Part shown: positions 34,877 to 58,700 of the stretch, piece by piece
How positions within the stretch are numbered: the first letter of the stretch is position 1
Layout: each line of letters begins with the position of its first letter
DNA from: a virus
Strand: one strand, 5' to 3'
Virus record (IMG/VR): IMGVR_UViG_3300021373_003070
DNA: 64,000 nucleotides
Program-made: the position numbers and the translations under genes
The notes under the pieces: generated by a model
Told to the model about the DNA's origin: nothing
What the model saw: only the letters and a program-made list of their open reading frames with translations
The model's database searches: none

Positions 34877-35067
34877 TGAATGATGGATTGACTAAGGTTG
34901 ATCAAAATACTTATATAAATAATTCAAGTACAGATTATCAAAAATTTAAGCAAGAACGCGAAAAACTAAAACAAGCAAGAGACATGTCGAATAGGATCAC
35001 TCAATTAGAAACACAGGTGACCAAGATTATGACCCTCATAGAAGAACTTAATGCTAGGATCAAATAA
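34876..35067 (+). CDS. small coiled-coil protein typical after VrlC-like genes
   Basis: IN....Y..FK..R...RI..LE..V..I..L; TAATG overlaps on both sides. Confidence 0.75.
   Translation: MNDGLTKVDQNTYINNSSTDYQKFKQEREKLKQARDMSNRITQLETQVTKIMTLIEELNARIK
34914..34921 (+). promoter_or_regulatory. late promoter
   Basis: TATAAATA upstream of the 1962-aa fibre gene. Confidence 0.6.
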
Positions 35068-38000
35068 TGGCGCTACTTTCAGGTTTCGATGAATTAAATT
35101 CAGCAAATGCAACATTTAGTGATTGGTTAACAAAAACCAATGAGCTAATCTTGCTTATGCGAGGTGCAAATACAGCGCCAAGTATTACCTCAGTCATGAC
35201 GGCTAACTCGCTTCCCGGCGGTTCAATGACATTTGGAAATGCTACACTATTTGGCCAATTTACTGCTAATACGATGGTCGTATTGAACGATGGTGAAAAT
35301 GATGGATCAGACGATAATGTTTTCGCCAATGGTAACTTTGGTGGATTAAGAGGTGGTGTATGGAATAATGCTTCTAATACAATCACTGCTGATACATTAT
35401 ACATCGTTTCCAATACCACGTACACAGATGAATCAGTTGAGGTCTATGTCGATTCTACTTATGGTCTTATTGTTGAGCAAAATATTGAAGCGCGGCATGA
35501 TGTCTTATTTGTAGGTAACGGTGGTTCTAACACAAATCCAAAGATGCATTGGGAAGATGCAGACAATATTCTTAGTTTCAATAACAACGTAAGAGCTGTC
35601 TTTGGTAAGAACGCAGGCTCAGAAGTTGTAGGCGGTACAGGACAAGCAGAATTCTTATTTGTTGATGCAGATAATCGAATGTATGTCAACACGGAGAATA
35701 TGAACATCCGTGCAAATACTGACGTCAACTTTATCACAGACAACTTTGAGCTGAAGTCAGATATAGGCTCAGAACTTTATATCTCAGCTGACGTTGCAGA
35801 TAACAGCACAGTCAAGCTATACTATGAAGGTAACGAAAGACTCGCCACGAACACACATGGTATTGTAGTCACAGGCGATGCCATTGTACAAGACGATCTT
35901 GTTATGTTTGATGGTGGCCGAATCATGATGGGTAACACATATCCATATGACGGCACACAGGATATTGCATCATATAACTTTCAAATTTATACAGACGGCA
36001 CTGACGGTATTATTGTATCTGGTGACAAAGATCTCAATATCTTTGTTCATGAAGGATTCAATCTTACAAATGAACCCGGCACGATAAACTTCATCACAGC
36101 TAATAACGATGGCTCAAGCGAAGTTGTTCTTTATAATAACGGTACTGCTCGCCTCGAAACAACCGGTGCACAGGCTGGTGAAGTTCCGGGTGTAGAAATC
36201 TTTGGTGAAGCGAATACGACTACATTGCGTGTACGTCAAGATGCAAACTTTGACAACGATACTTTAAACTCGAACAGTGTTCATTGGGATGCAACAAACG
36301 AAGTATGGAATTACCGTGATTCAGTTAAAGCCACATTCGGTGATAGCGATGACTGGGAGATGTTCTATACTGCTGCAGGTCGTGCATACTCTAATACAGA
36401 TAATCAAGATATTCGAGCCAGAACTGATCTAAATGTTATTTCCAACATTGTGGAAATGAAATCAGAGACAGGCGGCGAATTGTATATCTCAGCAGATGTT
36501 GCTGACAATAGCACTGTCAAACTTTACTACGAAGGTAACGTAAGACTATCTACAAATACACATGGTATTGAAGTTGATGGCGATGTTGTAGTAAAAGATA
36601 ATACTGTCATCTTCGACAATAACAAGCTGTTGATGGGTGGCACATATCCATATACCGGCGGCGAAGCAATCGCCGATTATAATTTCCAAATTTACACTGA
36701 CGGAACCGATGGTATTATTGTTTCTGGTGATAAAGATCTAAACATCTTTGTACACGAAGGATTCAATCTTACTAACGAGCCCGGCACTGTTAGCTTTATT
36801 ACTGCTAATAATGACGGATCAAGTGAAGTTGTACTATACAATAATGGTACAGCAAGATTAGAAACGACTGGTTCACAAGTCGGTGAAGTGCCCGGCGTAG
36901 AGATTCATGGTGAAGCCAACACTGATACACTACGTGTTGAAGGCGATGTTCGCTTCGATGGTTCTACAGACGGTATAACAACAACACTCAATGCTAACAA
37001 CATCGAATGGACATCATTGTCAAATACAATGAACTTCGATGATAACACATATCTTGAGTTTGGTACATCTGGCGACTTCAAGATTCACCATGATGGATCT
37101 CACACATATATGCAAGACACTGCCGGCGTCGGTAATGTCTACTTAGATACAAATACCTTCATTGTTAGAAATGCAGCTGGCAACGAAAATCTAATTCGTG
37201 CGATTCAAGATGATGGCGTAACTCTTTACTTTAATAATAGTCAGCGATTAGATACTACAAACCTTGGTGTTGACATTGAAGGCGAAGCAAACACCGATAC
37301 ATTGCGTGTTCAAGCCAACGCAACGTTTGAGTCAGATGCAATTAGTCCAAACGAAGCTGCGTTAGAGTGGAATTCGGCATCGCGAGTACTTGATTGGAAT
37401 GATAATGCTCGAGCAAGATTTGGTAATGGTGTAGATCTACAGATCTGGCATAGTAGCGCAGATAATAGTTCATATATTGCAGAATCTGGTGCTGGTAATC
37501 TGAACATATCAGGTACTAACATCAACATCGAAGCTCAAGACGGTAGCAATTATATTACAGCAGTCGACGATGGTAGCGTTAGTATTTTCTTTGCCGGCGA
37601 CGGCGTCAGCGATAACGGTAATATTGCACGACTGACTACAACAGACATCGGTGTTGATATTGAAGGTGAGGCCAATACTGATACACTTCGAGTACAAGGC
37701 GACGTTGCAATTGAAGATGGTACTGGTACTGTAGAAGTTACATGGGATGCATCCAATAGCAGAATGAATTTTGTGGACGAAGCAAGATTACGTTTTGGTG
37801 ATAGTGCAGACCTACAAATATGGCACAGCGGTACAGCATCATGGATAGCAGATTCAGGAACAGGCAACCTATTCATCGAAGGTACAAACTTAGTACTAAG
37901 AGCTACCGATGATACACGTTATCTTGTAGGTACCGATGGAACTGGCGTAGAAATTTATTCACCTGACGATAGTGTTGCATTAACTGCAAATAACAATCAG

Positions 38001-40955
38001 ATTCACATCACCGATCTCGCTAATACAAATACATTGCGAGTACGTGGTACGTCATTGTTTGAGAATGATATCAGTATCGAAGGTTCTGATAGTAACGAAG
38101 CGCTAGATTGGGATAAGTCAGCGAATACATTAAACTTTAATGATGATAACTATGCTACATTCGGTACAAGTAGCGATCTACAGCTTTATCACGATGGCAC
38201 AAACTCGTTTATCAAAGAACAAGGTACTGGTCAACTAAACATTGATGGTAGTGTTGTAGCGATTCGTGATGTCAGCGATGGTACAACGATTGCCAAATTT
38301 ACCGATGGTGCTGGTGCTGATATTTCTTACAACGGCACAGTACGAATGTCAACAGATGACGGCGGTATTACTGTTACAGGTAATACAGTTGCTGATGGTT
38401 TTGTTGCAGGTGATAATGAGAAGTTACAACTCGGTAATGCTCAAGATTTAGAGCTGTATCATGACGCTTCTGATTCACGAATTGATAATAAAACCGGTAA
38501 TCTTGTAATTAGAAACGCTTCCAATGATGCTGACGTAATTATTCAAACAGATGATGGTTCAGGTTCCCAAGCAGTATATTTCCAAGCAGATGGTAGTACA
38601 GGATCAGTTAAACTTTTCCATTATGGTGCAACGAAATTAACAACAACTAGTATTGGTGTTGATCTTGAAGGCCAAGCAAACACAGATACACTACGAGTGC
38701 AATCTACCTCTGACTTCGAAGGTAGTATTAACATTCAAGGTTCTAATGATACTGATACTCTCACTTGGACCAAGTCATCCAATACTCTTAACTTCGACGA
38801 CAATAACTTTGCTACATTCGGCAATGATTCTGATCTTTCTATCTACCACGATGGAGATCATTCATTCATCTCCGATACCGGTACAGGCGCATTACGAGTA
38901 CTTTCAAACGACATTATCTTTAAAGATTCGGCGAATACTGAAACAATGGCGCGCTTTGTACAAAATGGTGCTGTTACACTCTACTTTGATAATTCACAGA
39001 AATTTATTACTACCAATACAGGTGCTACACTTACTGGCACATTAATTGCCGATGGTGTTACTGTTGGTGACAATGAGATTATTCAACTTGGTACAACCAT
39101 GCAGTTGTACAATGACGGCTCAACATCTTATATTAACGAAACTGGTAGCGGATCATTAACTGTACAAGCAAATAATCTTATTTTAGAAGATACAGGTGGC
39201 GATGATTTCGTTACAGGTGTAGCAGGTGGTACTGTTAGACTCTATTATGCTGGTGCATATAAGTTAGAAACAGATCTCGCAGGTGTAAATGTAAATGGTT
39301 CATTGGATGTATCATCGGCTCTAACAGTTGGTGGTGTTACTAGTCTCGAAAACGATATTGATATTCAAGGTTCTACGGGCGCAGACACTCTTACGTGGGA
39401 TAAGTCAGCCAACACATTAAACTTTGACGATAACAACTTTGCGACATTTGGTACCGGCGCTGACATGTCTTTGTATCACAATGGTACAAATTCATTTATT
39501 GAAAACACTACTGGTGAGTTGTTTGTAAAAGCAGATGGTCTCACATTACGAAGTACAACGAACGAAGATTATCTAACCGCTGATTTAGACGGTGGCGTTA
39601 CACTGTACTTCAATAATTCGGAGAAACTTGCAACCACTAATACAGGCGCAACACTTACAGGTACATTGATTGCCGACGGTGTTACAGTTGGTGATGACGA
39701 AATCATTCAGCTTGGTACAACCATGCAGCTGTACAATGATGGTGCTAACTCATACATTACCGAATCTGGTTCAGGCAATTTTAACTTACAGGCAAACAGT
39801 GTTGCATTAGAAAATACTGATGGTGGTAACTACTTCACCGGTGTAGCCAATGGCGCTGCTATCATGTATCATGCCGGCACAGCGCGTGTATCAACTACAT
39901 CATCTGGTGCAAGTATCACTGGAGCTCTTGGCGTAACGACAAATCTGACAGTAACAGGTTCAACATCACTCAATGGTACAGTCGATCTTGGTAATGCCGC
40001 TAGCGACAATATTGACTTCAATGGTCGCGTAAGAACTAGTATTGTACCAAACGCGAACAATACGCGTGATCTTGGTTCGTCCACCCTCGTATGGAATGAC
40101 ATCTATAGTGGCGGCGCATTTAGTGGAAATAATGGTACATTTACCGGCGACCTTACAGTTTCAGGCAATACGGCAATTACCGGTAACACTTCAGCATCAC
40201 ACTTTATTGGCAACGGTTCACAGCTTACTGATCTAAATGGCACCGCAATTACTACCGGCACTGTTGACGCTGCTAGAATTGATGCTGAGCTTACATCGAA
40301 TACGAGTGGTACAGCTGCTACTGCTACACAGCCGGCTGTTACCGACTCATCCACTGATACTGACTTTAGAGTAACCTTTGCATCTAATACCGGCCAATTC
40401 CGTGATTTGTATGCTGATTCTACATTCTTATATAATCCAGCTGACAATGCATTATATGTCGACAACTTAATTGTCAATACGGAGATTACTCTACCAGATA
40501 ATATTACAGCGCAAACAGTATCCGCTGTAGATTTCAGTGTATCCAATACGGCCACAATATTAAATCTTGAAGTGACCTCGCTTGAAGCGAACGGCGTGGC
40601 ATTTACCGGTACGGGTGGTGATGTTACAACAACAGCATCTACGATGATCGATAGCTTCCCAATTGAACAAACACGTGGATATAAGTATTTTGTACACGGT
40701 GAAGTCACTAACGACGATACAAAAGGATACGCTGTTGAAATCAACGTTATTACTACTGACACTGGCGCCGATACAAAGATTTTCTACACTCGATATGGTG
40801 AAGTTGAAAATGGTATGGGCACGGTAGAAGTTGTTCCAGAGCTAGCAAGTAATAACACGCACATTGATTTGATGGCGACATGTCCTGCAGCTACAGCTTC
40901 TGCAATTCACAGATTTAACGTACTTAAGATAGAAACTAGGGATAATGGTGTATAA
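35067..40955 (+). CDS. long tail-fibre-like protein with repeated modules
   Basis: N-terminal TFSDWLTKTNEL attachment motif; many F.DN..ATFG..DL.IYHDG..S.I / KL.TT..G repeats; internal duplications. Confidence 0.8.
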   Translation: MALLSGFDELNSANATFSDWLTKTNELILLMRGANTAPSITSVMTANSLPGGSMTFGNATLFGQFTANTMVVLNDGENDGSDDNVFANGNFGGLRGGVWNNASNTITADTLYIVSNTTYTDESVEVYVDSTYGLIVEQNIEARHDVLFVGNGGSNTNPKMHWEDADNILSFNNNVRAVFGKNAGSEVVGGTGQAEFLFVDADNRMYVNTENMNIRANTDVNFITDNFELKSDIGSELYISADVADNSTVKLYYEGNERLATNTHGIVVTGDAIVQDDLVMFDGGRIMMGNTYPYDGTQDIASYNFQIYTDGTDGIIVSGDKDLNIFVHEGFNLTNEPGTINFITANNDGSSEVVLYNNGTARLETTGAQAGEVPGVEIFGEANTTTLRVRQDANFDNDTLNSNSVHWDATNEVWNYRDSVKATFGDSDDWEMFYTAAGRAYSNTDNQDIRARTDLNVISNIVEMKSETGGELYISADVADNSTVKLYYEGNVRLSTNTHGIEVDGDVVVKDNTVIFDNNKLLMGGTYPYTGGEAIADYNFQIYTDGTDGIIVSGDKDLNIFVHEGFNLTNEPGTVSFITANNDGSSEVVLYNNGTARLETTGSQVGEVPGVEIHGEANTDTLRVEGDVRFDGSTDGITTTLNANNIEWTSLSNTMNFDDNTYLEFGTSGDFKIHHDGSHTYMQDTAGVGNVYLDTNTFIVRNAAGNENLIRAIQDDGVTLYFNNSQRLDTTNLGVDIEGEANTDTLRVQANATFESDAISPNEAALEWNSASRVLDWNDNARARFGNGVDLQIWHSSADNSSYIAESGAGNLNISGTNINIEAQDGSNYITAVDDGSVSIFFAGDGVSDNGNIARLTTTDIGVDIEGEANTDTLRVQGDVAIEDGTGTVEVTWDASNSRMNFVDEARLRFGDSADLQIWHSGTASWIADSGTGNLFIEGTNLVLRATDDTRYLVGTDGTGVEIYSPDDSVALTANNNQIHITDLANTNTLRVRGTSLFENDISIEGSDSNEALDWDKSANTLNFNDDNYATFGTSSDLQLYHDGTNSFIKEQGTGQLNIDGSVVAIRDVSDGTTIAKFTDGAGADISYNGTVRMSTDDGGITVTGNTVADGFVAGDNEKLQLGNAQDLELYHDASDSRIDNKTGNLVIRNASNDADVIIQTDDGSGSQAVYFQADGSTGSVKLFHYGATKLTTTSIGVDLEGQANTDTLRVQSTSDFEGSINIQGSNDTDTLTWTKSSNTLNFDDNNFATFGNDSDLSIYHDGDHSFISDTGTGALRVLSNDIIFKDSANTETMARFVQNGAVTLYFDNSQKFITTNTGATLTGTLIADGVTVGDNEIIQLGTTMQLYNDGSTSYINETGSGSLTVQANNLILEDTGGDDFVTGVAGGTVRLYYAGAYKLETDLAGVNVNGSLDVSSALTVGGVTSLENDIDIQGSTGADTLTWDKSANTLNFDDNNFATFGTGADMSLYHNGTNSFIENTTGELFVKADGLTLRSTTNEDYLTADLDGGVTLYFNNSEKLATTNTGATLTGTLIADGVTVGDDEIIQLGTTMQLYNDGANSYITESGSGNFNLQANSVALENTDGGNYFTGVANGAAIMYHAGTARVSTTSSGASITGALGVTTNLTVTGSTSLNGTVDLGNAASDNIDFNGRVRTSIVPNANNTRDLGSSTLVWNDIYSGGAFSGNNGTFTGDLTVSGNTAITGNTSASHFIGNGSQLTDLNGTAITTGTVDAARIDAELTSNTSGTAATATQPAVTDSSTDTDFRVTFASNTGQFRDLYADSTFLYNPADNALYVDNLIVNTEITLPDNITAQTVSAVDFSVSNTATILNLEVTSLEANGVAFTGTGGDVTTTASTMIDSFPIEQTRGYKYFVHGEVTNDDTKGYAVEINVITTDTGADTKIFYTRYGEVENGMGTVEVVPELASNNTHIDLMATCPAATASAIHRFNVLKIETRDNGV

Positions 40956-41362
40956 TGGCAAACGCAATATACGATAAATACAAAGAAGAAATATTGACGA
41001 CTGCAACAAATACTAACTTGTTGACAGAAACGGTGAAAGTGTCTCTTGTAAATTCAGATATCACATTATTTGATAGTACTGACGAATTCTATAGCGACTT
41101 AAATTCTACTGGTGGTATTCTTTCAACTGTAACTCTTGCGAATAAAACACTCGTAGATGGTGTTTTAAATGCAGACGATCTTGTTTTTTCAAGCGTTACA
41201 GGTGCAGAGTCTGAAGCACTATTGATATGGATAGATACCGGAGTCACAACTACATCGCGGCTGGTTTGTTGGTTAGACACCAATATCACTGGTTTTCCTA
41301 TTACGCCTGACGGTTCTAATATAGATATTACATGGAGCAGTTCAGGTATTTTTAAACTATAA
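40955..41362 (+). CDS. putative virion structural protein
   Basis: MANAIY.K.KE..L..KV.LV..G...ADD..F..V.G..L....D..G.P.TP.G..I...W..GIFKL pattern of phage structural proteins. Confidence 0.65.
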   Translation: MANAIYDKYKEEILTTATNTNLLTETVKVSLVNSDITLFDSTDEFYSDLNSTGGILSTVTLANKTLVDGVLNADDLVFSSVTGAESEALLIWIDTGVTTTSRLVCWLDTNITGFPITPDGSNIDITWSSSGIFKL

Positions 41363-41372
41363 GAGAAGATAG

Positions 41373-42527
41373 ATGGCAACTTCACAGAAATTTGATGCGT
41401 TAGATGGATTAGAAGTCACAGGTCAAATGACCGTGGGGGCAAATCTTGCCGTTGATTCAGATACTCTTTTTGTAGATAGTGTCAATGATCGTGTTGGCAT
41501 CAACGATTCAACACCATCATATCCGCTTGATGTAAATGGCAATGCACAAGTTACAGGTGGCATATACGTTGGCACTAATATTACTCACATCGGCGACGCC
41601 GATACCACGATCGGATTTACGACAAATCAAATTGATATTACTGCTGGTAACGTAAATGTTGCTCGAGCCAATACTACTGTGCTATCAATTCAAGCCGGCT
41701 CAGGTATTGCAGTTAGAGATGTAACCGGCGGAGCCGCTGCTTCAGAGTTTCAATCTAATTCTAGTAAACCAAACGGCTCAATTGGGGCTAACTTCGTATA
41801 TACACATGTTGTAGAAGCCGCTGGTGAGAAAGCATCCGGTGGAAGTGCAATCGTATTAGGTCAAATTGACTATACTGGTTCGGGTACTTGGTCAAATACA
41901 AGCTCAGACAATATTAAATTTGTTCTAGGTGGTGCCGATAATTATAATTTTTCGACGACCAACGCCAATTTTTACAACAATAATCTAATCAATGTTACTG
42001 ATATCACTGTAGCAAATAGTATTAGTCATGTCGGCGATAATAATACTTATTTCCAATTTAATTCTAATGATTCGGCCCGTATTGTTACTAACGGATCCCA
42101 GAGATTTGTAGCAAATAATAGTGGTGTATTCGTATCAGGCGCTTTAGATGTATCGACAGATATTACGGCTCGACGGCTTACTGTCGAAGATTATTTTATT
42201 GAAACTACTTCAACCGCTCCGGGCGGTACCGCTGTTACAATTGATTGTAACGTAGGATCAGTTGTTGAATTTACTCCATCAGGAGCATATTCAGTAGACT
42301 TTACCAACTTACCGACAAATGGAACATCAGCATTCACATTGGTTATAAATAATAATGGAACTGCTAGAGAAGCAACATGGCCGGGCTCTGGAGAAGATGA
42401 TGCAATATATTGGGCTGAAAGCGTTGAGCCACCAGCATCAGCAGGTTACGACATATATAATTTTATTGTGATTAATGGCAAAATTTATGGTTCGCTTTCA
42501 ATCCGCAATGCTGGTTGGGCACAATAA
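41373..42527 (+). CDS. short fibre protein with C-terminal docking/adaptor-type domain
   Basis: VDSDTLFVDS.NDRVGIN..P...LDVNG and H.GD..T..F fibre repeats; C-terminal WP..WAESVEPP..DIY domain. Confidence 0.7.
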   Translation: MATSQKFDALDGLEVTGQMTVGANLAVDSDTLFVDSVNDRVGINDSTPSYPLDVNGNAQVTGGIYVGTNITHIGDADTTIGFTTNQIDITAGNVNVARANTTVLSIQAGSGIAVRDVTGGAAASEFQSNSSKPNGSIGANFVYTHVVEAAGEKASGGSAIVLGQIDYTGSGTWSNTSSDNIKFVLGGADNYNFSTTNANFYNNNLINVTDITVANSISHVGDNNTYFQFNSNDSARIVTNGSQRFVANNSGVFVSGALDVSTDITARRLTVEDYFIETTSTAPGGTAVTIDCNVGSVVEFTPSGAYSVDFTNLPTNGTSAFTLVINNNGTAREATWPGSGEDDAIYWAESVEPPASAGYDIYNFIVINGKIYGSLSIRNAGWAQ

Positions 42528-42544: not shown

Positions 42545-45466
42545 ATGCCAGTAGGTGGCGGTAAGGGTTTTATTGATAAAACCTGGGCACAAACATTTGA
42601 TGAAACACGATTCAAAGATGCTGCGTCAGGTACAACTGATGCAACTCCTATTTCTGTGCCTTATGGAAAGCAAGTAATTGAAATTACTGCAAGGGGTGGA
42701 GCCGCTAGCGCGCCAATACTAGATCCTGCATATTCAATTACAAAGAACGCTTATACAACGTCAAACATTACTTCGTATCCTTCGCGTACTTTCTTTAAGG
42801 ATGTATATACAACTCAGATCAATACCTCGTATCCAACAAGAACATTCTTTAAAGATTCATATACGTTATCTACAATATATCCAGCTAGGAATACTTTTGA
42901 GAATGCTTATACTACTGTAGCATATACGCAGTATCCATCGCGTGTGCAAAAGAATGCATATAATACTGTACAATTCACTGCATATCCTGCTGACGTTGCG
43001 AAGAATGCCTATACCACTCAGGTAAACACTGCTTATCCTGCTGACGTTCAAAAGAATGCTTATTCTACTGTAGCATATACACAATATCCAACCAGATTTA
43101 ATAAAGCCGCTTATAATACCGTACAGTATACGCAATATCCAATTAGATACGCTAAGTCAGCTTATACTACTGTAGCATATACGCAGTATCCACAGCGAAA
43201 CCAAAAAAATGCTTATACGACTGTAGCATATACGCAGTATCCTGCTCGTACTCAGAAAGCCGCATATAATACACAGGTCAATACGGCTTATGGTGCCGAC
43301 GTTCAAAAGAATGCTTATACGACTGTAGCATACACGCAATATCCTATTCGATATTCTAAGGCCGCATATACTACATCGACCATCACTAACTATCCTGCTC
43401 GTACATCAAAAGCAGCATATTCTACAGTAACTAATACTGCATACGGCGCTGACGTGGAAAAGAATGCATATTCTACGGTAACTAATACTGCATACGGCGC
43501 TGACGTGGAAAAGAATGCATATAATACTGTGCAGTATACACAATATCCAGCTGATGTAGCAAAGAATGCATATAACACCGTAGCATATACACAATATCCT
43601 GCACGATTTACTAAGGCTGCATACAATACATCGTCCACCACTAACTATCCCGCGCGGTTTAACAAGGCTGCATACAATACATCAGTCACCACTAATTATC
43701 CTGCACGGTTTAATAAAGCCGCGTATAACACATCAGCTACCACTAACTATCCTGCACGGTTTAATAAAGCTGCGTATAACACATCAGCCATTACTAACTA
43801 TCCTGCTGATGTTCAAAAGAATGCTTATTCTACTGTAACATATTTGTTCTACAACTCTGAAGTTCAGAAATTTTCATATTCGACATCTGTCGTAACGTCA
43901 TATCCAGCTCGTACTCAAAAAGCTGCTTACTCTTTCCAGCAATATCAACTAAGTTCGAGTAACCAAACTTATGTTCTGACAGGATTTGTTTCAGGACCAA
44001 CGCGTTGGCAAAAATCAGCATATAATGCGACTGTCACCACACAGTATCCAGCAAGATTTAATAAAGGTAGTTATAATTTAGCAGTAAATACAGATTATCC
44101 TGCACGGTTTAATAAGGCTGCATATTCTACAGTAACCAATACCGCATATGGTGCTGATGTAGCAAAGAATGCTTATTCTACAGTAGTCAATACTGCTTAT
44201 CCAGCAGCCGTAGCAAAGAATGCTTATTCTACTGTACAAACAACAGCATATGGTGCTGATGTAGCAAAGAATGCTTATTCTACAGTAGTCAATACCGCAT
44301 ATACTGCCGACCAAGAGAAAGCAGCTTATACTACTCAGGTAAACACTGCTTATCCTGCTCGATTTAATAAAAGTGCGTATACAACTCAGGTTAATACGGC
44401 TTATCCTGCACGGTTTAATAAAGCCGCGTATAACACATCAGCTACCACTAACTATCCTGCACGGTTTAATAAAGCTGCGTATAACACATCACAAACAACT
44501 AACTACCCAGAACGGTTCCAAAAAGCTGCTTATTCTACTGTACAAAATACGCAATATCCAGCTGATGTACAAAAGAATGCTTATACTACTCAGGTTAATA
44601 CTTCATATCCTATTCGATATAGTAAAGCTGCTTATAATACTGTACAATATACACAGTATCCACAGAGATTTGCAAAAGGAGCATACACCACTCAGGTAAA
44701 CACTGCTTATCCGCAGCGATTCCAAAAGTCAGCGTATACAACTCAGGTCAATACTTCATATCCTCAGCGTGTGCAGAAAAATGCATACACAACTCAGGTT
44801 AATACTGCATACGGTGCTGATGTACAAAAGAATGCCTATACTACACAGGTCAATACCTCATACCCAACAAGATTTAATAAAGCTGCTTATTCTACTGTAG
44901 CATACACACAATATCCAACCAGATTTAATAAAGCTGCTTATAATACACAGGTAAATACGGCATTTCCACAGAGATTTAATGCTGCATATACAACTCAGAT
45001 CAATACCTCGTATCCAACAAGATCATTCTTTAAAGATTCATATACATTATCTACGATATATCCTGCAAGAAATACTTTCGAGAATGCATATACAACAGTA
45101 GCATATACACAATATCCATCGCGTACATTCTTTGAGAATGCATATTCTACTATACAATATACACAATATCCATCTCGTATAACTAACTATCCGGATAGAG
45201 TTACAGCTGGTACTGCTGGAACCGATAGTGTTGTTTCATGGGTAACAGCAGACGGTTATTCTGTATCGTTTACTGCTGCCGGTGCACAACCAAATATCAC
45301 AAACTATGTAATTCGCACAGCTCAGACTTCAAACAGAAAGATATTTGATCCAACTAAAGTCGATGGTGTAGATGGAACACAACTTAATGTTTCCGTAGGT
45401 AACTCGCCAGCAGGTAACAATACAGCAGCTAATAGAGGGTTTATAAATATAAAGTACACTGGTTAA
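42545..45466 (+). CDS. 973-aa mirror-repeat protein: split Gly-containing globular domain with an ~800-aa inserted predicted beta-hairpin
   Basis: AAGGA SD; 47 units of consensus K(N/A)AY(N/S/T)Txxx(T)xYP(A/x)(R/D)xx, with unique N- and C-terminal flanks. Confidence 0.85.
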   Translation: MPVGGGKGFIDKTWAQTFDETRFKDAASGTTDATPISVPYGKQVIEITARGGAASAPILDPAYSITKNAYTTSNITSYPSRTFFKDVYTTQINTSYPTRTFFKDSYTLSTIYPARNTFENAYTTVAYTQYPSRVQKNAYNTVQFTAYPADVAKNAYTTQVNTAYPADVQKNAYSTVAYTQYPTRFNKAAYNTVQYTQYPIRYAKSAYTTVAYTQYPQRNQKNAYTTVAYTQYPARTQKAAYNTQVNTAYGADVQKNAYTTVAYTQYPIRYSKAAYTTSTITNYPARTSKAAYSTVTNTAYGADVEKNAYSTVTNTAYGADVEKNAYNTVQYTQYPADVAKNAYNTVAYTQYPARFTKAAYNTSSTTNYPARFNKAAYNTSVTTNYPARFNKAAYNTSATTNYPARFNKAAYNTSAITNYPADVQKNAYSTVTYLFYNSEVQKFSYSTSVVTSYPARTQKAAYSFQQYQLSSSNQTYVLTGFVSGPTRWQKSAYNATVTTQYPARFNKGSYNLAVNTDYPARFNKAAYSTVTNTAYGADVAKNAYSTVVNTAYPAAVAKNAYSTVQTTAYGADVAKNAYSTVVNTAYTADQEKAAYTTQVNTAYPARFNKSAYTTQVNTAYPARFNKAAYNTSATTNYPARFNKAAYNTSQTTNYPERFQKAAYSTVQNTQYPADVQKNAYTTQVNTSYPIRYSKAAYNTVQYTQYPQRFAKGAYTTQVNTAYPQRFQKSAYTTQVNTSYPQRVQKNAYTTQVNTAYGADVQKNAYTTQVNTSYPTRFNKAAYSTVAYTQYPTRFNKAAYNTQVNTAFPQRFNAAYTTQINTSYPTRSFFKDSYTLSTIYPARNTFENAYTTVAYTQYPSRTFFENAYSTIQYTQYPSRITNYPDRVTAGTAGTDSVVSWVTADGYSVSFTAAGAQPNITNYVIRTAQTSNRKIFDPTKVDGVDGTQLNVSVGNSPAGNNTAANRGFINIKYTG
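42743..45184 (+). repeat. tandem ~51-bp coding repeat array (23 units + central 31-codon unit + 23 units)
   Basis: Manual parsing of the translation; includes an exact 91-bp direct repeat at 43696-43786 and 44401-44491. Confidence 0.92.
45442..45449 (+). promoter_or_regulatory. late promoter for the oxygenase-like cassette
   Basis: TATAAATA 40 nt upstream of ATG 45489 (GAGG SD). Confidence 0.65.
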
Positions 45467-45488: not shown

Positions 45489-46049
45489 ATGTTATTAGCT
45501 CCATCCACGGAACTTTCTCGTTTCGTAATTGTCGATAATCTTGTTGACACCGTAGATAAAATACGATTCTTTGAGAAGATTATCGGTTTTCAACCTAGAG
45601 ATCCAGAAAGCGAATTTGCATGTGATTTAGGATATCTAGAATCAGACATGAATACAAATAAAATTGTGTATGATCCCTTTCATTCTCTTATCTCTACAAT
45701 AAATTATGAAGCTTTTTTGTATGATATAGAATCTCTTGAAAAATTCATGTACGCTCGACTTACTTCAACTGCTCAAGATCATATCAAACCTCATCGTGAA
45801 ATACGATTATCTGGCTATAGAAAACAAGATCGTAAGATTACGATGCTTAGCTGTCTATCAAATAATAACGAATATGAAGGTGGCGAATTAAAAATTGATA
45901 TCGATGGAACTCTGCAACCGCAAATTATAAATTTAAAGGCCGGCCAAACGGTATTCTTTGATTCACATGTTACATGGGGAATAGAACCAGTGACGAGTGG
46001 CGAAGCAAGATTTCTATTGAACAATGCATGGGGTAAATCACAACTATGA
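45489..46049 (+). CDS. 2OG-Fe(II) oxygenase-fold protein (PKHD-like), metal ligands degenerate
   Basis: RKIT..LS...YEGGEL..G..VFF.S...PVTSG; HRE in place of HxD and W in place of distal His. Confidence 0.75.
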   Translation: MLLAPSTELSRFVIVDNLVDTVDKIRFFEKIIGFQPRDPESEFACDLGYLESDMNTNKIVYDPFHSLISTINYEAFLYDIESLEKFMYARLTSTAQDHIKPHREIRLSGYRKQDRKITMLSCLSNNNEYEGGELKIDIDGTLQPQIINLKAGQTVFFDSHVTWGIEPVTSGEARFLLNNAWGKSQL

Positions 46050-46756
46050 TTTTTAATAATGATCCCGGTCTAGAGTTTTATACATCAGAGCATTTATATG
46101 GCGCACTCATTGAACCATCTAGAATGCAAAAGCATGTGCCAGAATGGTTTAAGAAAATACCTGTTACAAAAAATATTCGTGATCAAGGTGGGTTCCCATT
46201 ATTTACGGCTAAAAAATGTTTACCTATGCTAGATGCTATGACTCTTGGTTGGGTGATTCCATTACAAAGTGATGTACATGTAATTACAAATGACGATTGT
46301 TCTATAATTCAGGCTGCAGGAAGAGAAGGCAATCAAATACAAGCCGTACAAGGCCACGCGTGGGATCAAATTGCATCTGAAAAATGGCCGGGCTTTAAAC
46401 AAGATCCGTTGAAGTTTATTAATCATTGGCGAATCAAAACTAAACCCGGCTGGTCATGTTTATTTCAAGCAATGCCAAATTCAGTGCAATCTGATTTTAC
46501 ATGTTTGAGTGGTGTTGTTGATACCGACACATATATGAATACTATTAATTTTCCAGCTGTTTGGAATACGCCAAATGCAGATATAACTTTAAAAGCAGGT
46601 ACGCCATTAGTGCAAGTTATTCCATTCAAAAGAAATAAGATGGATGCTAAAATCAGAACAGCTACAGATCGCGAAGAAAGAAAAAGAGATATACTTGAAA
46701 AGGCGCAAGGAACAAGAACGGGCGTATACACTCAAGAATTAAGAGAAGTTAGATAA
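46046..46756 (+). CDS. DUF6065-like (dUTPase-like fold) phage protein
   Basis: PEWFK..K.C.P.LD.MT.G..IP..D..KF.N.W.I.T..GWS.LF..GVVD.D..INFP..GTPL.QVIPFKR. Confidence 0.65.
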   Translation: MIFNNDPGLEFYTSEHLYGALIEPSRMQKHVPEWFKKIPVTKNIRDQGGFPLFTAKKCLPMLDAMTLGWVIPLQSDVHVITNDDCSIIQAAGREGNQIQAVQGHAWDQIASEKWPGFKQDPLKFINHWRIKTKPGWSCLFQAMPNSVQSDFTCLSGVVDTDTYMNTINFPAVWNTPNADITLKAGTPLVQVIPFKRNKMDAKIRTATDREERKRDILEKAQGTRTGVYTQELREVR

Positions 46757-47535
46757 TGTGGAAAAAGAATCATAATGAAGAGTTCGTCTTTAATGATATG
46801 TGGGGTTCTGTTTGGGGAACATGGCCGATTGTAGCAGCAAATAAATTTAAAGCGCCGTATGAAAGTTTTCAAAGAGAAAAATATGGGCGACCACATCTTG
46901 TAGATTGTCCCGGCATGTACGACTATAAAAATCAAGGCTGGTTAATGCTAGCTTGGTGTGAAATTGAAGTGCATTGTGATGGAAAAAATACCATGATGTA
47001 TTATGGCCATCGAGATAAAGGTGAATGGCCAACCCCTGTTAATCAAGAATGTCCATATAAGCTTGATCACAATAAACACATCGACGAGCAATGGATAAAA
47101 AGTGCATCTGGCATGTCAGAAAAAATAGCCCATGGTATCGCCGAGCATCGAGACAGCAATCCTACACCAATGCATATTAGTACGCCATGGGCAATAATTA
47201 ATAAAGGCTGTTCGCTAATGGTTCAGCCTCCTGTATATCATAGTAATATTTCAGAAGACTTTTATGTATATCCCGGCATAGTTGATTATGAGAATGGATT
47301 TTCTACAATGAATTTTATATTCTCATGTAAAAAAGAAGGTAAGTTTACAATTAAACCGGGTACTCCTATTTTACATATGATACCTATGATTAAAAGAGAT
47401 TGGAAGGCATACTATACACACGATAGTTTAGGTGAAACAAAATTCTATACTGGTGCGCTGTCTAATGCTAAACAATTTTATAGAAAAATGGTACATAGAA
47501 GAAACAGATTTACGATTGATCGGTGGGATAAATGA
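46756..47535 (+). CDS. DUF6065-like paralog
   Basis: CPGM.DY..G..W..TPW..G.S..PP..PGIVDY..NF..I.PGTP..H.IP..R. Confidence 0.6.
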   Translation: MWKKNHNEEFVFNDMWGSVWGTWPIVAANKFKAPYESFQREKYGRPHLVDCPGMYDYKNQGWLMLAWCEIEVHCDGKNTMMYYGHRDKGEWPTPVNQECPYKLDHNKHIDEQWIKSASGMSEKIAHGIAEHRDSNPTPMHISTPWAIINKGCSLMVQPPVYHSNISEDFYVYPGIVDYENGFSTMNFIFSCKKEGKFTIKPGTPILHMIPMIKRDWKAYYTHDSLGETKFYTGALSNAKQFYRKMVHRRNRFTIDRWDK

Positions 47536-48347
47536 TAAACACAGAAGCTCTAGAAGAAATTAAAATTGCTACAAGCTTTAATGATAGACCGTATCTAATT
47601 AAAAACTTTACTTCATTTCCTGACCAATTTTTAAATCATATGTATTTTTATGAATGTTTCGGTGAATGTAATTATTATGATTGTCATGTATTGCCTATTA
47701 TGGAATGGGGTGATACAGCGTCGTCACTAAAGATATCATTTAATGATCTTGCTTATAAAAATAAAAAGAAAGACATAGATGAGAATGGCGTGCAGAATTA
47801 TAAGTCGCGACAAAGAATGGAAGGGATGGGTAGGAAACGTCCATTAGATTATTTAAAAGATAAGAACACGCTTAGAATTTATAATTATGAAAAATATAAT
47901 AATCTATCGCGTGATATGAGTAATGCTTTATTAGACACCTTTACACTCGATGTAGATATCTTTGGGGTGTGGCCGGCGTTTGTAACACCAGAAAAAGGTG
48001 CTGCGCATGCGACTTTCATAAAAGAGAATGAAATATCTGGTCATCCTCGAGGTGAAAATTATAATTCATTTTACTTACAAACAGTAGGCACATCAGAGTT
48101 TGTCATATACAAAAATCGTGTCAGTGGTTTAGTTGATAAGAATCTACCATTTGACTGGACAAAAGAAAAACGAGTAATATTTTTTGATAATCTTGAAGTC
48201 GAAGAAACCATAGAAGTAAACCCAGGCGACTTACTATACATACCTGAAAGAAAAATGTTTTATGAAAAAGGTGTGGAAGAAAGAATGCATATTAATTTTC
48301 CTCTAATATACAAAGGACCTCAGTCGAGTTATAATCCAACATTATGA
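47532..48347 (+). CDS. JmjC/cupin-like protein, metal ligands degenerate
   Basis: RPYLIKN; F.LQ..G.S.F; V.PGDLLYIP..R....P; lacks HxD and distal His. Confidence 0.65.
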   Translation: MINTEALEEIKIATSFNDRPYLIKNFTSFPDQFLNHMYFYECFGECNYYDCHVLPIMEWGDTASSLKISFNDLAYKNKKKDIDENGVQNYKSRQRMEGMGRKRPLDYLKDKNTLRIYNYEKYNNLSRDMSNALLDTFTLDVDIFGVWPAFVTPEKGAAHATFIKENEISGHPRGENYNSFYLQTVGTSEFVIYKNRVSGLVDKNLPFDWTKEKRVIFFDNLEVEETIEVNPGDLLYIPERKMFYEKGVEERMHINFPLIYKGPQSSYNPTL

Positions 48348-48964
48348 TAGAAGTAGAAGACATTTTCATTGAAAGTATTTTTAAAGAAGTATATGACGAT
48401 ATAAATCATCAAGAAATACACGACTATATAAACTTTCTTATGAGTAGAGAAGAGAAAGGTGTAGTCATTTCTAATAAAGGTGGGTGGCAATATCATGTTC
48501 AACGCGATGAGTGTGAAGCTATAGATTATTTGAATGATAGACTGCATGCCACGGCCCATCAAATTTTATATGAGTATTATAGCTTTGATATGAAGAATAT
48601 GGTCAGCGCTGGTATATGGATTAATGTAAATAATTCCGGTGATTATAACGTAAATCATAATCACGCCGGCTCCGTGCTATCTAGTTGTTATTATTTACAG
48701 GCGCCTGAACCTTCAGCCCATATTGAATTTGAACCAAATGATCAATTGTCTAGAACAATATTGAGAAACGAACTCGAAAAAGGTGGATCTGAATTTTTAG
48801 GAGATGATAATCCTCGTATTAGAATGGGCGCGGGCAAAGCACCACAAGAACGGGAAGCATACTTTTTTACAGGACATCTGTCACATCGAGTTGATATAAA
48901 TAATTCAGTCGAGCCTAGAATTTCACTCGCGGCTAATTTCTGTTCGAGCGCAGCTCGCTCTTAG
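48344..48964 (+). CDS. putative 2OG-Fe(II) oxygenase (TIGR02466-like)
   Basis: SNKGGWQ; WINVN..GDYN..HNH..LSSCYY; L.H.V..N..PRISLA.N. Confidence 0.85.
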   Translation: MIEVEDIFIESIFKEVYDDINHQEIHDYINFLMSREEKGVVISNKGGWQYHVQRDECEAIDYLNDRLHATAHQILYEYYSFDMKNMVSAGIWINVNNSGDYNVNHNHAGSVLSSCYYLQAPEPSAHIEFEPNDQLSRTILRNELEKGGSEFLGDDNPRIRMGAGKAPQEREAYFFTGHLSHRVDINNSVEPRISLAANFCSSAARS

Positions 48965-55734: not shown

Positions 55735-58700
55735 ATGGCATTAGTACGCACAATCTACCATGTTGACGATTATGTAGCGGTTGGCTATGTAAGAAAAACC
55801 GAAGAGCTGGAAGGTGTAGCTGGTATTGGCGCATCTTCATTATCAGGCGTCGGTGAACGTAAAGCTCCAGCTACTGGCTCACTCGTATCAGCAAATTCTA
55901 GTCTATCAAATGCTGATGGTGAACGTGAAGTTAAAGTATTATCAGGTGTACCACAGGTCACCGTTTCTCTATCTGGTTCTGGTAAAACAAATAGAATTGC
56001 TGTAGGTTCTATTGTATCTGCAAACAGTTCAATCTCTAGTGTTGGCGAAAGAACTATCAGTGGTTCTGGTTCCGTCACAAAATCTAACAACTTTATTGCG
56101 AGCACCGGTGAAAGAACTGTAGTCGGTTCTGGTTCGATGCCACAGGAGACGAATCAAGTTGTTGGTGTCGGTGAACGCAGAGTTACTAAAGTTGGCGCTG
56201 GAAATCTAGTATCTGCAAACTCATCAATATCGAGTTCAGTAAAAAGATCAATTACAGGTACTGGATCTCTGCCACAGGAGACCAATCAGCTTGTTGGTGT
56301 TGGTGAAAGAGGTGCGTCAGGTGCAGGTTCATTACCACAGAAAACCAACACCTTGGCTGGTATCGGCGAACGAGCTTCGGTTGCTGTCGGTCAGCTACCA
56401 CAAAAAACCAATACGGTATCAGGCACTGGTCAACACGGTCTAGTAGGAAATGGATCAATTGTATCAGCCAATAACAGCATTGCTGGTGCCGGCGAAAGAA
56501 TAATAACCTCATCTAGTAATATTCAACAAGGCGATCACAGCCTATCAGGTTTAGGTGAGAAAAGCGCTTCCGGAAGTGGCAATCTACCACAAAAGACTAA
56601 CACACTGGCTGGTGTTGGTGAGCGTGTTATTACGGCCAGCGGCTCATTATCATTAGCAAATAGCAGCGCTACAAGTTCTGGTATAATAGAAAGAGTTGGT
56701 ACCGGTACACTTATTACAACGGCTGCACTTTCTTCCATAGCTGAAAGAACTATATCTGGTCCCGGCCATTTACCAACTCCTGAAGTAACACTTGCAGGTA
56801 TTGCTGAACGTACGATTACTGGCACGAGTTCTTTACCTCAAAAGACTAATACACTCTCAGGTATTGCAGAACGAGAAATCTCTGGTTCGGTTTCTCTTAC
56901 CACATCTGCTTCACTTTCTGGTTCCGGTGAGAGATTAATTACTGGCACAGGCGAGCTGCCGGTTGAAACAAATACTCTATCAGGTATTGGCTTACGAACT
57001 GTTATATCATCAGGTTCGGTGCTATCTGCAAATTCAGCTATTAGTTCTGTTAGCGAAAGAAGCATCACTGGTTCAGGTTCGCTGCCGCAAGAAACAAATG
57101 AATTAGCCGGTGTCGGTGAAAGAATAATCACAGGTACCTCATCCGTTGTAGCTGATAATTCGTCTATAACTGGCACATCGACACGCTTGATTGACAGCGA
57201 TTCAACACTTATTACCACTGCATCTACATCTGGTGTAGGTGAACGAGAAATTGTATCATCTTCGGGCAATTTAGAATCTGATGTTTCAAGTGTCTTCGGA
57301 CTGGCATTTGCAGGACCAGCTTCAACATTCTCTACACTTCAAGCAGCAAATAGCTCGATATCGAGCGTCGGTGAAAGAATCGTAACAGGTTCTGCGACGT
57401 TAAATACATTCGTCTCGATATTCAGCGAAGGTGAGAGATCTGTAACTGTAGTCGGATCACTAGATTCAGCTAATTCAAGCATATCGAGTGTAGGTGAAAG
57501 ATCTATAACTGTCGCTGGTAATCTTACTGCTACAGATGATTCTGCAGTCGGTACTGGTTTACGAACGATAGTCTCTACACCAACATTGACAACCGAAGCT
57601 AGTGTTTCTTCGACCGGTACGCGTACCATAGTTGGTTCTGCTACACTCACAACAACAGGATCAGTACAATCACCAGTACCGGCTGAGCGCGAAGTCAAGC
57701 TTATTTCCGGTGTGCCACAAGTTGAAGTATCGATAAGCGGTGAAGGTTTACGAACAGTTGTTACTGGCACAAATAATGTTGAATCTGAAACGTCTTCACT
57801 CTTAGGTAATGGACAAGCAGGAAAGACTGCATCTGGCAATGTTGTTTCTGCTAACTCATCAATCTCCGGTGATGGTATCAGAGAGATTGTCAGTGATCCT
57901 ATTTCACTGACAACTACAGGCTCTATATCAAGTAATGGTGTTCGAACTGTACCGGGTAGTGGATCACTGATCACAACCACATCAATCGATGGTATTGCTG
58001 AAAGAATAATTACGACAGGTACAAATACATTAGTATCTGCCAACTCATCAATTGCCGGTATCGCTGAAAGAGTCATTGAAGGTAGTGGCGCATTACCACA
58101 AAATAATAGCAGCCTGACTTCAACTGACGGCGAGAGAGAAATTACCGTCGTATCTGGCATATCACCAACAAGCGCTCAAGTTGATGGTGAAGGTATAAGA
58201 CAAACTGTTGGTACTGGTAGCGTTGTTGCAGCTGCCAACCTAGACGGCGTGGTCGAACGTATTATTACATCGACTGGTAACTTACCACAAAATAATTCAT
58301 CGCTTCTTGGTGATGGTGCACGCGGACCGCTAGGTACTGGTTCTATAGTATCAGGTAATTCATCCGTACAATCTCCTGTACCAGCTGAGCGTGAGGTCAA
58401 GGTTGTATCAGGTATATCACCAACCGCAGCAAATGTAGATGGTGCTGGTTTAAGAACTATTATAAGTGATACAAATACACTTGAAACCACATCGACATTA
58501 GATGGTGCTGTTGAACGCATAATCACCGGATTTGACTCGCTTCCACAACCTACTGCATCGCTAGCTGGTATCGGTGATAGAGATATTACTGGTACAGGCG
58601 TGCTGCCTCAAAATAATAGTAGTGTGTCTTCAACTGATGGTGAACGTGAAGTTACACTTGTATCAGGTATCTCGCCAACATCAGCTGAGTTTGCAGGTCA

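Follow-up and report, generated by a model that had tools for sequence, protein, structure and literature searches.

Can a protein chain built almost entirely from near-identical repeat units fold back on itself in one fixed register, and does its sequence carry the instructions for doing so? This question is raised by a gene in the 64,000-nucleotide (nt) stretch of viral DNA from IMG/VR record IMGVR_UViG_3300021373_003070 (that whole stretch is called the window below). The gene was called as an open reading frame (ORF) at 42545..45466 on the + strand, stop codon included, and encodes a repeat protein of 973 amino acids (aa), P0001. A preliminary description, made from the letters of the sequence, had proposed a very long antiparallel hairpin with complementary arms projecting from a domain built by the two chain termini. 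Judging from the sequences, we put a probability of roughly 0.75 on a virion fibre or stalk that folds back antiparallel in cis, with the chain running out, turning and pairing with itself. Antiparallel pairing of any kind, whether in cis or in trans, appears highly probable on the same grounds.

All parts of the gene described here lie on the + strand. The N flank (aa 1-66; 42545..42742) was assigned to one half of the base domain by alignment and by an AlphaFold model of a 179-aa relative. It bears the best-conserved motif of the family, G-K-G-F-x-D-K-T-W-A-x-T-F, together with P-Y-G-K ... R-G-G strands. The N arm (units 1-23, aa 67-458; 42743..43918) was delimited by segmentation and by Tandem Repeats Finder, which gave a period of 51 nt. 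Exactly between the arms sits a unique 31-aa centre (aa 459-489; 43919..44011), the proposed turn and distal tip, in which an S-S-S-N-Q-T loop is flanked by two hydrophobic stretches. The C arm (units 25-47, aa 490-881; 44012..45187) is complementary to the N arm in reverse unit order. It is followed by a C flank of 92 aa (aa 882-973, Y-P-D-R-V-T-A-G ... G-F-I-N-I-K-Y-T-G; 45188..45463), which is present in all 26 aligned relatives and is the putative other half of the base domain. Both arms are 392 aa long and comprise 23 units, so that segmentation returned the layout first described: 66 residues, 23 units, a 31-aa centre and 23 more units.

The usual unit has 17 aa and reads K-x-A-Y-x-T-x-x-x-T-x-Y-(P/G)-x-(R/D)-x-x. 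Every unit contains Pro or Gly. Thr makes up 16% of the whole protein, Ala 14.5%, Tyr 12% and Asn 9%; His and Cys are absent. Segmentation also set apart a base-proximal block in each arm. In the N arm it covers units 1-3 (18, 18 and 16 aa, with TFF/NTF tails; 42743..42898) and is followed by unit 4 (42899-42949); its counterpart in the C arm covers units 44-47 (44978..45187), the partners of units 1-4. Units 1-3, whose tail lengths deviate by +1/+1/+1 and one of whose mids is two residues short, are mirrored in this by units 46, 45 and 44.

When the array is folded so that unit i faces unit 48-i, the mid-unit types are complementary (A with B, or C with D) in 20 of the 23 mirror pairs. V-x-[YF]-T faces Q-[VI]-N-T in 12 pairs, S-x-x-T-N faces V-x-[NT]-T in seven, and the LSTI unit 3 faces unit 45. 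Any other fold axis yields at most nine complementary mid pairs, and direct offsets yield at most 14 of 41. Shuffling the units, either all together or within arms, never attained 20 complementary pairs in 200,000 trials (maximum 15). Because the mid-unit classes had been set after viewing the data, a class-free Mantel test was added, which asks whether N-arm units that look alike have mirror partners that look alike. For the mids, axis 48 alone gave a correlation, of r = 0.75 (0 of 5000 permutations); at the twelve other axes tried it was about zero.

The unit tails follow a related rule at the neighbouring axis, i+j = 47. All 13 acidic tails stand opposite an R-F/Y tail, and exactly one tail per rung is aromatic in 20 of 20 pairs (i = 4-23), a score that none of 200,000 shuffles attained (maximum 19). 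In the Mantel test the tails correlated at axis 47 (r = 0.32, p = 0.0008), and axes 51 and 52 gave weaker signals. An axis of 48 for mids and of 47 for tails is what plain antiparallel juxtaposition of the arms would lead one to expect. At the level of single residues, length symmetry does not separate the sums 945, 946 and 948, and no independent covariation is available from the unit variants, which are linked.

These results agree with the pairing counts for mids and tails in the preliminary description, and the permutation check that it proposed came out in its favour. Its view that the arms are complements rather than reversed copies also held, except next to the base. There, units 2-4 of the N arm are direct DNA copies of units 44-46 of the C arm, and in the corresponding rungs both facing tails are aromatic (TFF/SFF/NTF), like with like, with their irregular lengths matching.

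Relatives of the protein proved to be confined to uncultured phages. Neither blastn nor tblastn, run with the region, with the protein and with a flank-only relative, found a match in 50,697 deposited phage genomes, and a word-indexed homologue search with the full-length sequence found none either. HMMER, applied exhaustively to 1.84 billion representative proteins, returned 21 proteins, some of which align to the repeats only, and profile and pattern searches added nine IMG/VR loci and 28 metagenome loci. The relatives range from 179 to 782 aa in total length and share the same gene order. Searches of Pfam gave no match at an expectation (E) value of 0.01 or better for the 973-aa protein and none for three relatives. 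The same four proteins gave a single marginal match in PHROGs (phrog_6071, E 2e-5, function unknown), and sequence searches of the PDB with the 973-aa protein and with the family profile found no relative.

All members of the family have the N flank and the C flank in common, while the arms vary in unit type and number. In the family alignment, F, T, W, A and G-G columns of the N flank are invariant, and conservation peaks at the two termini and falls to its minimum in mid-gene. Such a profile fits a protein whose two ends together form the attachment domain and whose variable centre lies distally.

The mirror logic recurs in relatives that use other unit types. The 782-aa protein of L006, found identically in L007, L009 and L010, has 15-aa units in its N arm and 14-aa units in its C arm, with two core types, QNQ and SV(I/V). 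QNQ faces SV(I/V) in 17 of 18 pairs at one axis, compared with at most 10 pairs at other axes (within-arm shuffle, p = 3.8e-4). In L033 the alphabet is unrelated, and an 18-aa Q-P-Y-rich unit pairs with a 19-aa K-P-I-T...F-K-L-V unit. Its arms read YYXXYYXXY and, backwards, XXYYXXYYX, so that nine of nine rungs are complementary; this is weak evidence, because a pattern of period four would give such an outcome by chance alone roughly once in four.

Unit lengths point in the same direction. The proteins of L011, L005 and L013 and protein P0002 mix units of 16, 17, 18 and 19 aa. For paired mids, the sum of start and end positions is constant to the residue in 10 of 11 pairs (L011), eight of nine (L005), seven of seven (L013) and five of five (P0002), the two misses being parsing errors of the script. 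This residue-exact symmetry includes a matched pair of mids that are two residues longer, and shuffling the order of unit lengths gave p-values from <0.0005 to 0.004 for L011, L005 and L013. The mids (the A-Y...Y segments) are always equal in length within a pair. Base anchoring of the symmetry, by pairing of the first anchor with the last, was seen in five relatives. Three times among the 16-aa linkers of L011, N-T-Y-Q faces S-T-N-Q, so that here too a rung has one aromatic residue.

A code that sets the register implies that both arms change together in evolution. Exactly two extra blocks distinguish L005 from L013 (78% identity), one in each arm and each 34 aa long, and L026 differs from L024 and L028 (73-74% identity) by +32 aa and +32 aa at mirrored positions in the two arms. 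Between L013 and P0002 a single central block of 202 aa differs, which on the proposed layout is the distal part of the hairpin, and among close relatives small indels of 6-11 aa occur only at relative positions 0.48-0.50. The centre itself is variable: an ordinary unit in P0002, a 31-aa loop in the 973-aa protein and larger Gly-/aromatic-rich inserts in the L026 group. In L033 it is a segment of 54 aa with four Cys (Q-C-Q-C ... S-C ... L-C; residues 301-354 of L033:54-2063, + strand), which could be a disulfide-bonded or metal-binding tip knob.

Structure prediction was informative for the flanks. In the full-length AlphaFold model (14-row alignment) they appear as β strands at moderate confidence, with a predicted local distance difference test score (pLDDT) of 58-81 for the C flank. 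An ESM Atlas model had a pLDDT of 0.47, and its structural comparisons reached template modelling (TM) scores of at most 0.2, with no usable feature match. The family also includes an 'armless' protein of 179 aa, L030 (457-996, + strand), with flanks and about two repeat units. It equals L026 minus everything between the first and last copies of Q-P-A-Y-Y-V-Q-T-N-Y-P-A-R-Y, and is a minimal form that occurs naturally or else the product of a collapse in assembly.

AlphaFold modelled L030 (26-row alignment) as all β, with a pLDDT of 77 and a predicted TM score (pTM) of 0.60; the C flank scored 72-89, apart from one 10-residue block at 54. The model aligns to single-domain jelly rolls over residues 14-178, and both flanks are for this reason placed in one domain, a predicted β-sandwich. 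Its best match was chain m of 8zdo, from the baseplate of mycobacteriophage Douge (Z 7.2, root-mean-square deviation 3.3, 96 aligned residues), followed by nucleoplasmin cores (Z 6.5-6.9) and by TNF/C1q and Bdellovibrio fibre heads (Z 5-6). These matches cover about 85-115 residues, and every Z lies under the level at which the tool warns of common-arrangement matches. Foldseek with the base-domain model found nothing at an E of 0.001 or better in PDB or BFVD, and an Atlas shape search found nothing significant. The modelled base is best described as a jelly-roll-like β-sandwich of uncertain kinship. The likeness of the flanks to Gly-rich fibre-tip domains, suggested at the outset, was not borne out, since the matches are generic jelly rolls with Z at most 7.2. 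Unlike the jelly-roll domains of the baseplate protein, nucleoplasmin, TNF and C1q, the sandwich in this family is split by an insertion, of ~800 residues in the 973-aa protein, between its N-side and C-side strands.

Taken as a fibre or stalk on the virion of an uncultured marine or estuarine T4-like myovirus, the protein would be organized as follows. The N flank (aa 1-66) and the C flank (aa 882-973) would join in one β-sandwich, which presumably attaches to the baseplate or to an adjacent fibre protein. From this base the chain would run out through 23 units, turn at the 31-aa centre and return through 23 units, with unit i antiparallel to unit 48-i. A rung would consist of two short strands, the A-Y...Y mids, linked onward by Pro/Gly-containing tails, with tail i facing tail 47-i. 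The make-up of a rung would be held constant by a bulky or hydrophobic variant opposite a small or polar one (VxYT with QVNT, SxxTN with VxNT) and, in the linkers, by one R-aromatic tail opposite one acidic or non-aromatic tail. Which arm carries the bulky variant switches irregularly along the stalk, so that a single register would satisfy all rungs; off-register axes match at most 9 of 23, which is why we favour a single register. The code would then act like sequence in a nucleic-acid duplex, stopping slippage of near-identical repeats and fixing the stalk length. The distal tip would be encoded in mid-gene, and any change in stalk length would require both arms to gain or lose matching units. 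We infer the physical pairing, the rung geometry, the virion location and the register-setting role from the observations above.

The nearest described thing is the C-terminal needle of the long-tail-fibre protein gp37 of phage T4, likewise from a T4-type myovirus. This needle is short and obligately trimeric (six strands), contains a His-x-His iron-binding ladder and makes up only the last ~200 residues of a parallel trimeric fibre. In the work of Bartual et al. (2010), as summarized in PMC9659904, each chain runs to the tip and returns, with antiparallel strands and a receptor-binding head at the turn. An out-and-back chain, antiparallel segments and a distal head at the turn are also proposed here, from covariation rather than from a structure. 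The present protein differs from the needle in lacking both His and Cys, and the Pfam, PHROG and PDB searches showed no similarity to gp37. It differs further in its 392-aa arms with 23 discrete units each, its unit-level code and a base predicted to be built from both chain termini.

A second parallel lies outside phages. Proteins of the SMC/Rad50/MukB type assemble one head from N- and C-terminal segments and have long antiparallel arms of matched length in one chain, with a mid-gene domain at the turn. The N and C termini of the present family are likewise modelled in one globular head (the L030 model, pLDDT 77). Unlike the coiled coils of those proteins, with their heptad logic, the arms here consist of Tyr/Thr-rich units with Pro/Gly every 14-19 residues, and they appear to pair by discrete variants; no helices were predicted in either the full-length or the L030 model. 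There is no match to an ATPase family and no homology, and the likeness is an analogy of architecture. A literature search found no paper on a repeat fibre with mirror-complementary arms or on a fold-back repeat fibre, and no solved structure; the preliminary description likewise knew of no phage fibre with this architecture.

Several points weigh against the fold-back reading. Three rungs of the 973-aa protein fall outside the code, and one rung of L006 is off-code (S with S). The full-length AlphaFold model leaves the arms at a pLDDT of ~30 without secondary structure, and so provides no arm model. Sequence covariation is the sole basis for the arm pairing, and gene position the sole basis for the virion location. 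Two relatives have unequal arms: L034 (1953-3740, + strand) is missing 74 aa of the C arm of L033 but otherwise matches it with 100% identity, and L004 (7992-9662, + strand) lacks 48 aa of the N arm in comparison with L015, L016 and L017, whose arms measure about 212 and 210 aa. In both cases a collapse during short-read assembly is plausible, because the deletions lie between tandem copies; if they are instead genuine variants that the phages tolerate, the case for a strict zipper is weaker. The expectation that arm lengths change symmetrically among homologues is thus supported by the paired indels and qualified by these two exceptions.

Of the hairpin first proposed, the antiparallel relation of unit i to unit 48-i, the distal position of mid-gene and the union of the flanks in one predicted sandwich are strongly supported by the pairing statistics, the homologues, the paired indels and the AlphaFold model of the flanks. 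A continuous monomeric ribbon of ~130 nm is not supported. A single hydrogen-bonded ribbon with ~400 residues per arm is unlikely, because paired units are unequal in length (15/14 aa in L006, 18/19 aa in L033) and units of the L005 group contain up to three prolines; in addition, the arms were modelled at a pLDDT of ~30. A segmented ladder of short paired strands and linkers fits better. Our own estimates from standard β-strand geometry give up to ~130 nm for collinear rungs, ~20 nm for rungs stacked across the axis and ~10 nm for two apposed solenoids, and the stalk could be anywhere from about 11 to about 130 nm long.

It seems unlikely that a two-stranded ribbon with both faces exposed would be stable alone at such a length, and a monomer is no more likely than three hairpins in a trimer, as in the gp37 needle. 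The boldest form of the fold-back reading would be a protein counterpart of the nucleic-acid hairpin. One or three chains would zip into a two-stranded β ladder of tens to ~100 nm, with an aperiodic pairing code setting the register and lengthening only by matched insertions, and the ladder might unzip and re-zip as a mechanical sensor or a deployable fibre on host contact. We consider this full picture rather unlikely.

The pairing partners need not belong to the same chain. Chains arranged head to tail, with unit i of one facing unit 48-i of another and the flanks combining across chains, would form a symmetric strut or lattice element. Such an arrangement meets the mirror complementarity equally well, as sequence alone does not separate cis from trans, and domain swapping of flank strands is common in β-sandwich oligomers. 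It sits poorly with the combination of conserved termini and a hypervariable, indel-prone centre, which suits a polar structure attached at one end and distal at the other, and with the AlphaFold base domain, which is built from the two flanks of a single chain. Moreover, P0002, with an ordinary unit at its symmetry centre, and the almost armless L030 are sensible as short hairpins and not as struts. We consider pairing in trans improbable.

The repeats themselves suggest a further arrangement. Triple β-spirals, as in the adenovirus fibre and reovirus sigma1, are parallel trimers in which successive repeats are in contact and the two halves have no mirror relation. The present unit resembles theirs in repeat length (~15-17 aa), in the alternation of small and hydrophobic positions and in a Pro/Gly turn at position 13 (Y-P-A-R or Y-G-A-D), and both would belong to viral attachment fibres; the likeness is one of resemblance. 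The arms here are mirror-related, which would not be expected of such a shaft, and no Pfam shaft-repeat family was matched at an E of 0.01 or better. A parallel homotrimeric shaft of this kind (triple β-spiral or β-helix) could be bent at a central hinge, its half-shafts lying side by side permanently or when stowed, so that the code would describe rod-to-rod docking. The failure of the full-length AlphaFold model would then be unsurprising, since monomer predictions of obligate trimeric fibres usually fail. PHROGs, like Pfam, gave no shaft-repeat match, the base-domain model puts both flanks into a single domain, and the residue-exact mirroring of mids and the compensation of insertions within one rung suggest a contact closer than rod docking. 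We consider a hinged shaft improbable.

At the DNA level, a palindrome as the source of the mirror pattern was ruled out: the longest inverted repeat in the gene is 17 nt. Inverted homology was likewise rejected, with a reverse-complement identity of 0.451 for mirror-partner units and 0.454 for all unit pairs. The mirror pattern exists at the protein level only. That it is structurally meaningless, a by-product of array growth through recombination or gene conversion or of misassembly, gains something from the metagenome-type assembly with its collapse-prone tandem repeats (L030 and L034 look like collapses) and from the direct DNA copies in units 2-4 and 44-46, but is scarcely credible given that the arms share no DNA inverted homology, that no known mutational process places complementary, non-identical units in reverse order on one coding strand, and that the mirror logic recurs with other alphabets in independent samples and outlasts 22-27% divergence with matched indels.

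If the pairing is real, the fold-back reading describes a new plan for building a long fibre from one chain, with specificity held in a combinatorial code of repeat variants. It would bear on how highly repetitive proteins avoid misfolding out of register, and would offer a natural template for programmable β-sheet assemblies. Indels would have to come in mirrored pairs, and two such pairs were seen between diverged relatives. The host-recognition end would lie in mid-gene instead of at the C-terminus, which would alter the search for receptor-binding regions in marine T4-like phages, a group in which most fibre genes lack annotation. Pfam contains no model of the family, no relative has been solved, and about 50,000 deposited phage genomes contain no member, so that any first structure would be informative.

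The genomic context of the gene is that of a T4-like myovirus. The window holds a structural module with gp5-, gp6-, gp7- and gp8-like baseplate genes, giant fibre-like ORFs, the 973-aa gene and, later, a gp15-like gene. The gp6-like protein is <40% identical to that of any deposited phage, with best matches in Caulobacter phage Cr30, Sinorhizobium phage phiM12 and relatives, and Pelagibacter phage HTVC008M. Gene order is conserved in nine IMG/VR loci as far as their DNA extends: a 929-aa gene, a giant fibre gene, a 135-aa gene, a 384-aa gene, the gene of the repeat protein and then 2-oxoglutarate (2OG)-oxygenase-like and related genes. The 135-aa gene (phrog_644) and the 384-aa gene (weak tail-fibre PHROG matches) lie at 40955..42527 (+ strand) and precede the fibre gene in every related locus that reaches that far.

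Two nearly complete relatives, G001 (the record of L007; 163.7 kilobases (kb), 91% complete) and G002 (the record of L005; 160.3 kb, 89% complete), have one copy of the fibre gene each. No second copy or N-terminal motif was found elsewhere in the window or in these two genomes. The psbA gene was sought in both and was absent, and the group is for this reason probably not one of cyanophages, despite its oxygenase-rich T4-like marine gene content.

A cassette of five genes (45489..48964, + strand; Pfam and PHROG assignments) starts 22 nt past the stop codon of the fibre gene. Three of its ORFs have weak-to-moderate Pfam matches, to 2OG-Fe(II) oxygenase, to DUF6065 and, below the Pfam cut-off, to JmjC; the two others have no Pfam match, and one of these shares its PHROG with the DUF6065 ORF. 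The cassette lies downstream of the fibre gene in all eight related loci with enough DNA (L001-L003, L005-L009) and is partial in L004, where the locus ends. This tight linkage suggests that the repeat protein or neighbouring proteins are modified by the enzymes of the cassette, for instance through hydroxylation of invariant Pro, Asn, Arg or Lys of the units, which is speculation. A downstream ORF of 115 aa was considered as a paralog of the base domain and rejected (hhalign probability 0.04).

Two other giant repeat proteins of the window were inspected by eye only and had no obvious mirror relation. The first, at 35067-40955 (+ strand), encodes a fibre-like protein of 1962 aa with modules of ~100-240 aa and strong PHROG tail-fibre matches. 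The second, at 55735-60087 (+ strand), encodes 1450 aa in units of ~30 aa (G-E-R-x-I-T-G-x-G-S-L-P-Q-x-T-N-x-L).

The motif TATAAATA, the T4 late-promoter consensus, occurs 14 times in the window, compared with 5.0 expected, and none of 100 shuffles attained 14. Examples are the copies at 34914, 42344, 45442, 48965, 54438 and 55090. Twelve of the 14 lie on the + strand, and several are just upstream of gene starts. The copy at 42344..42351 (+ strand) lies inside the preceding gene, 195 nt upstream of the start codon of the fibre gene. On sequence grounds, the copies would fit T4-type late promoters driving the structural module.

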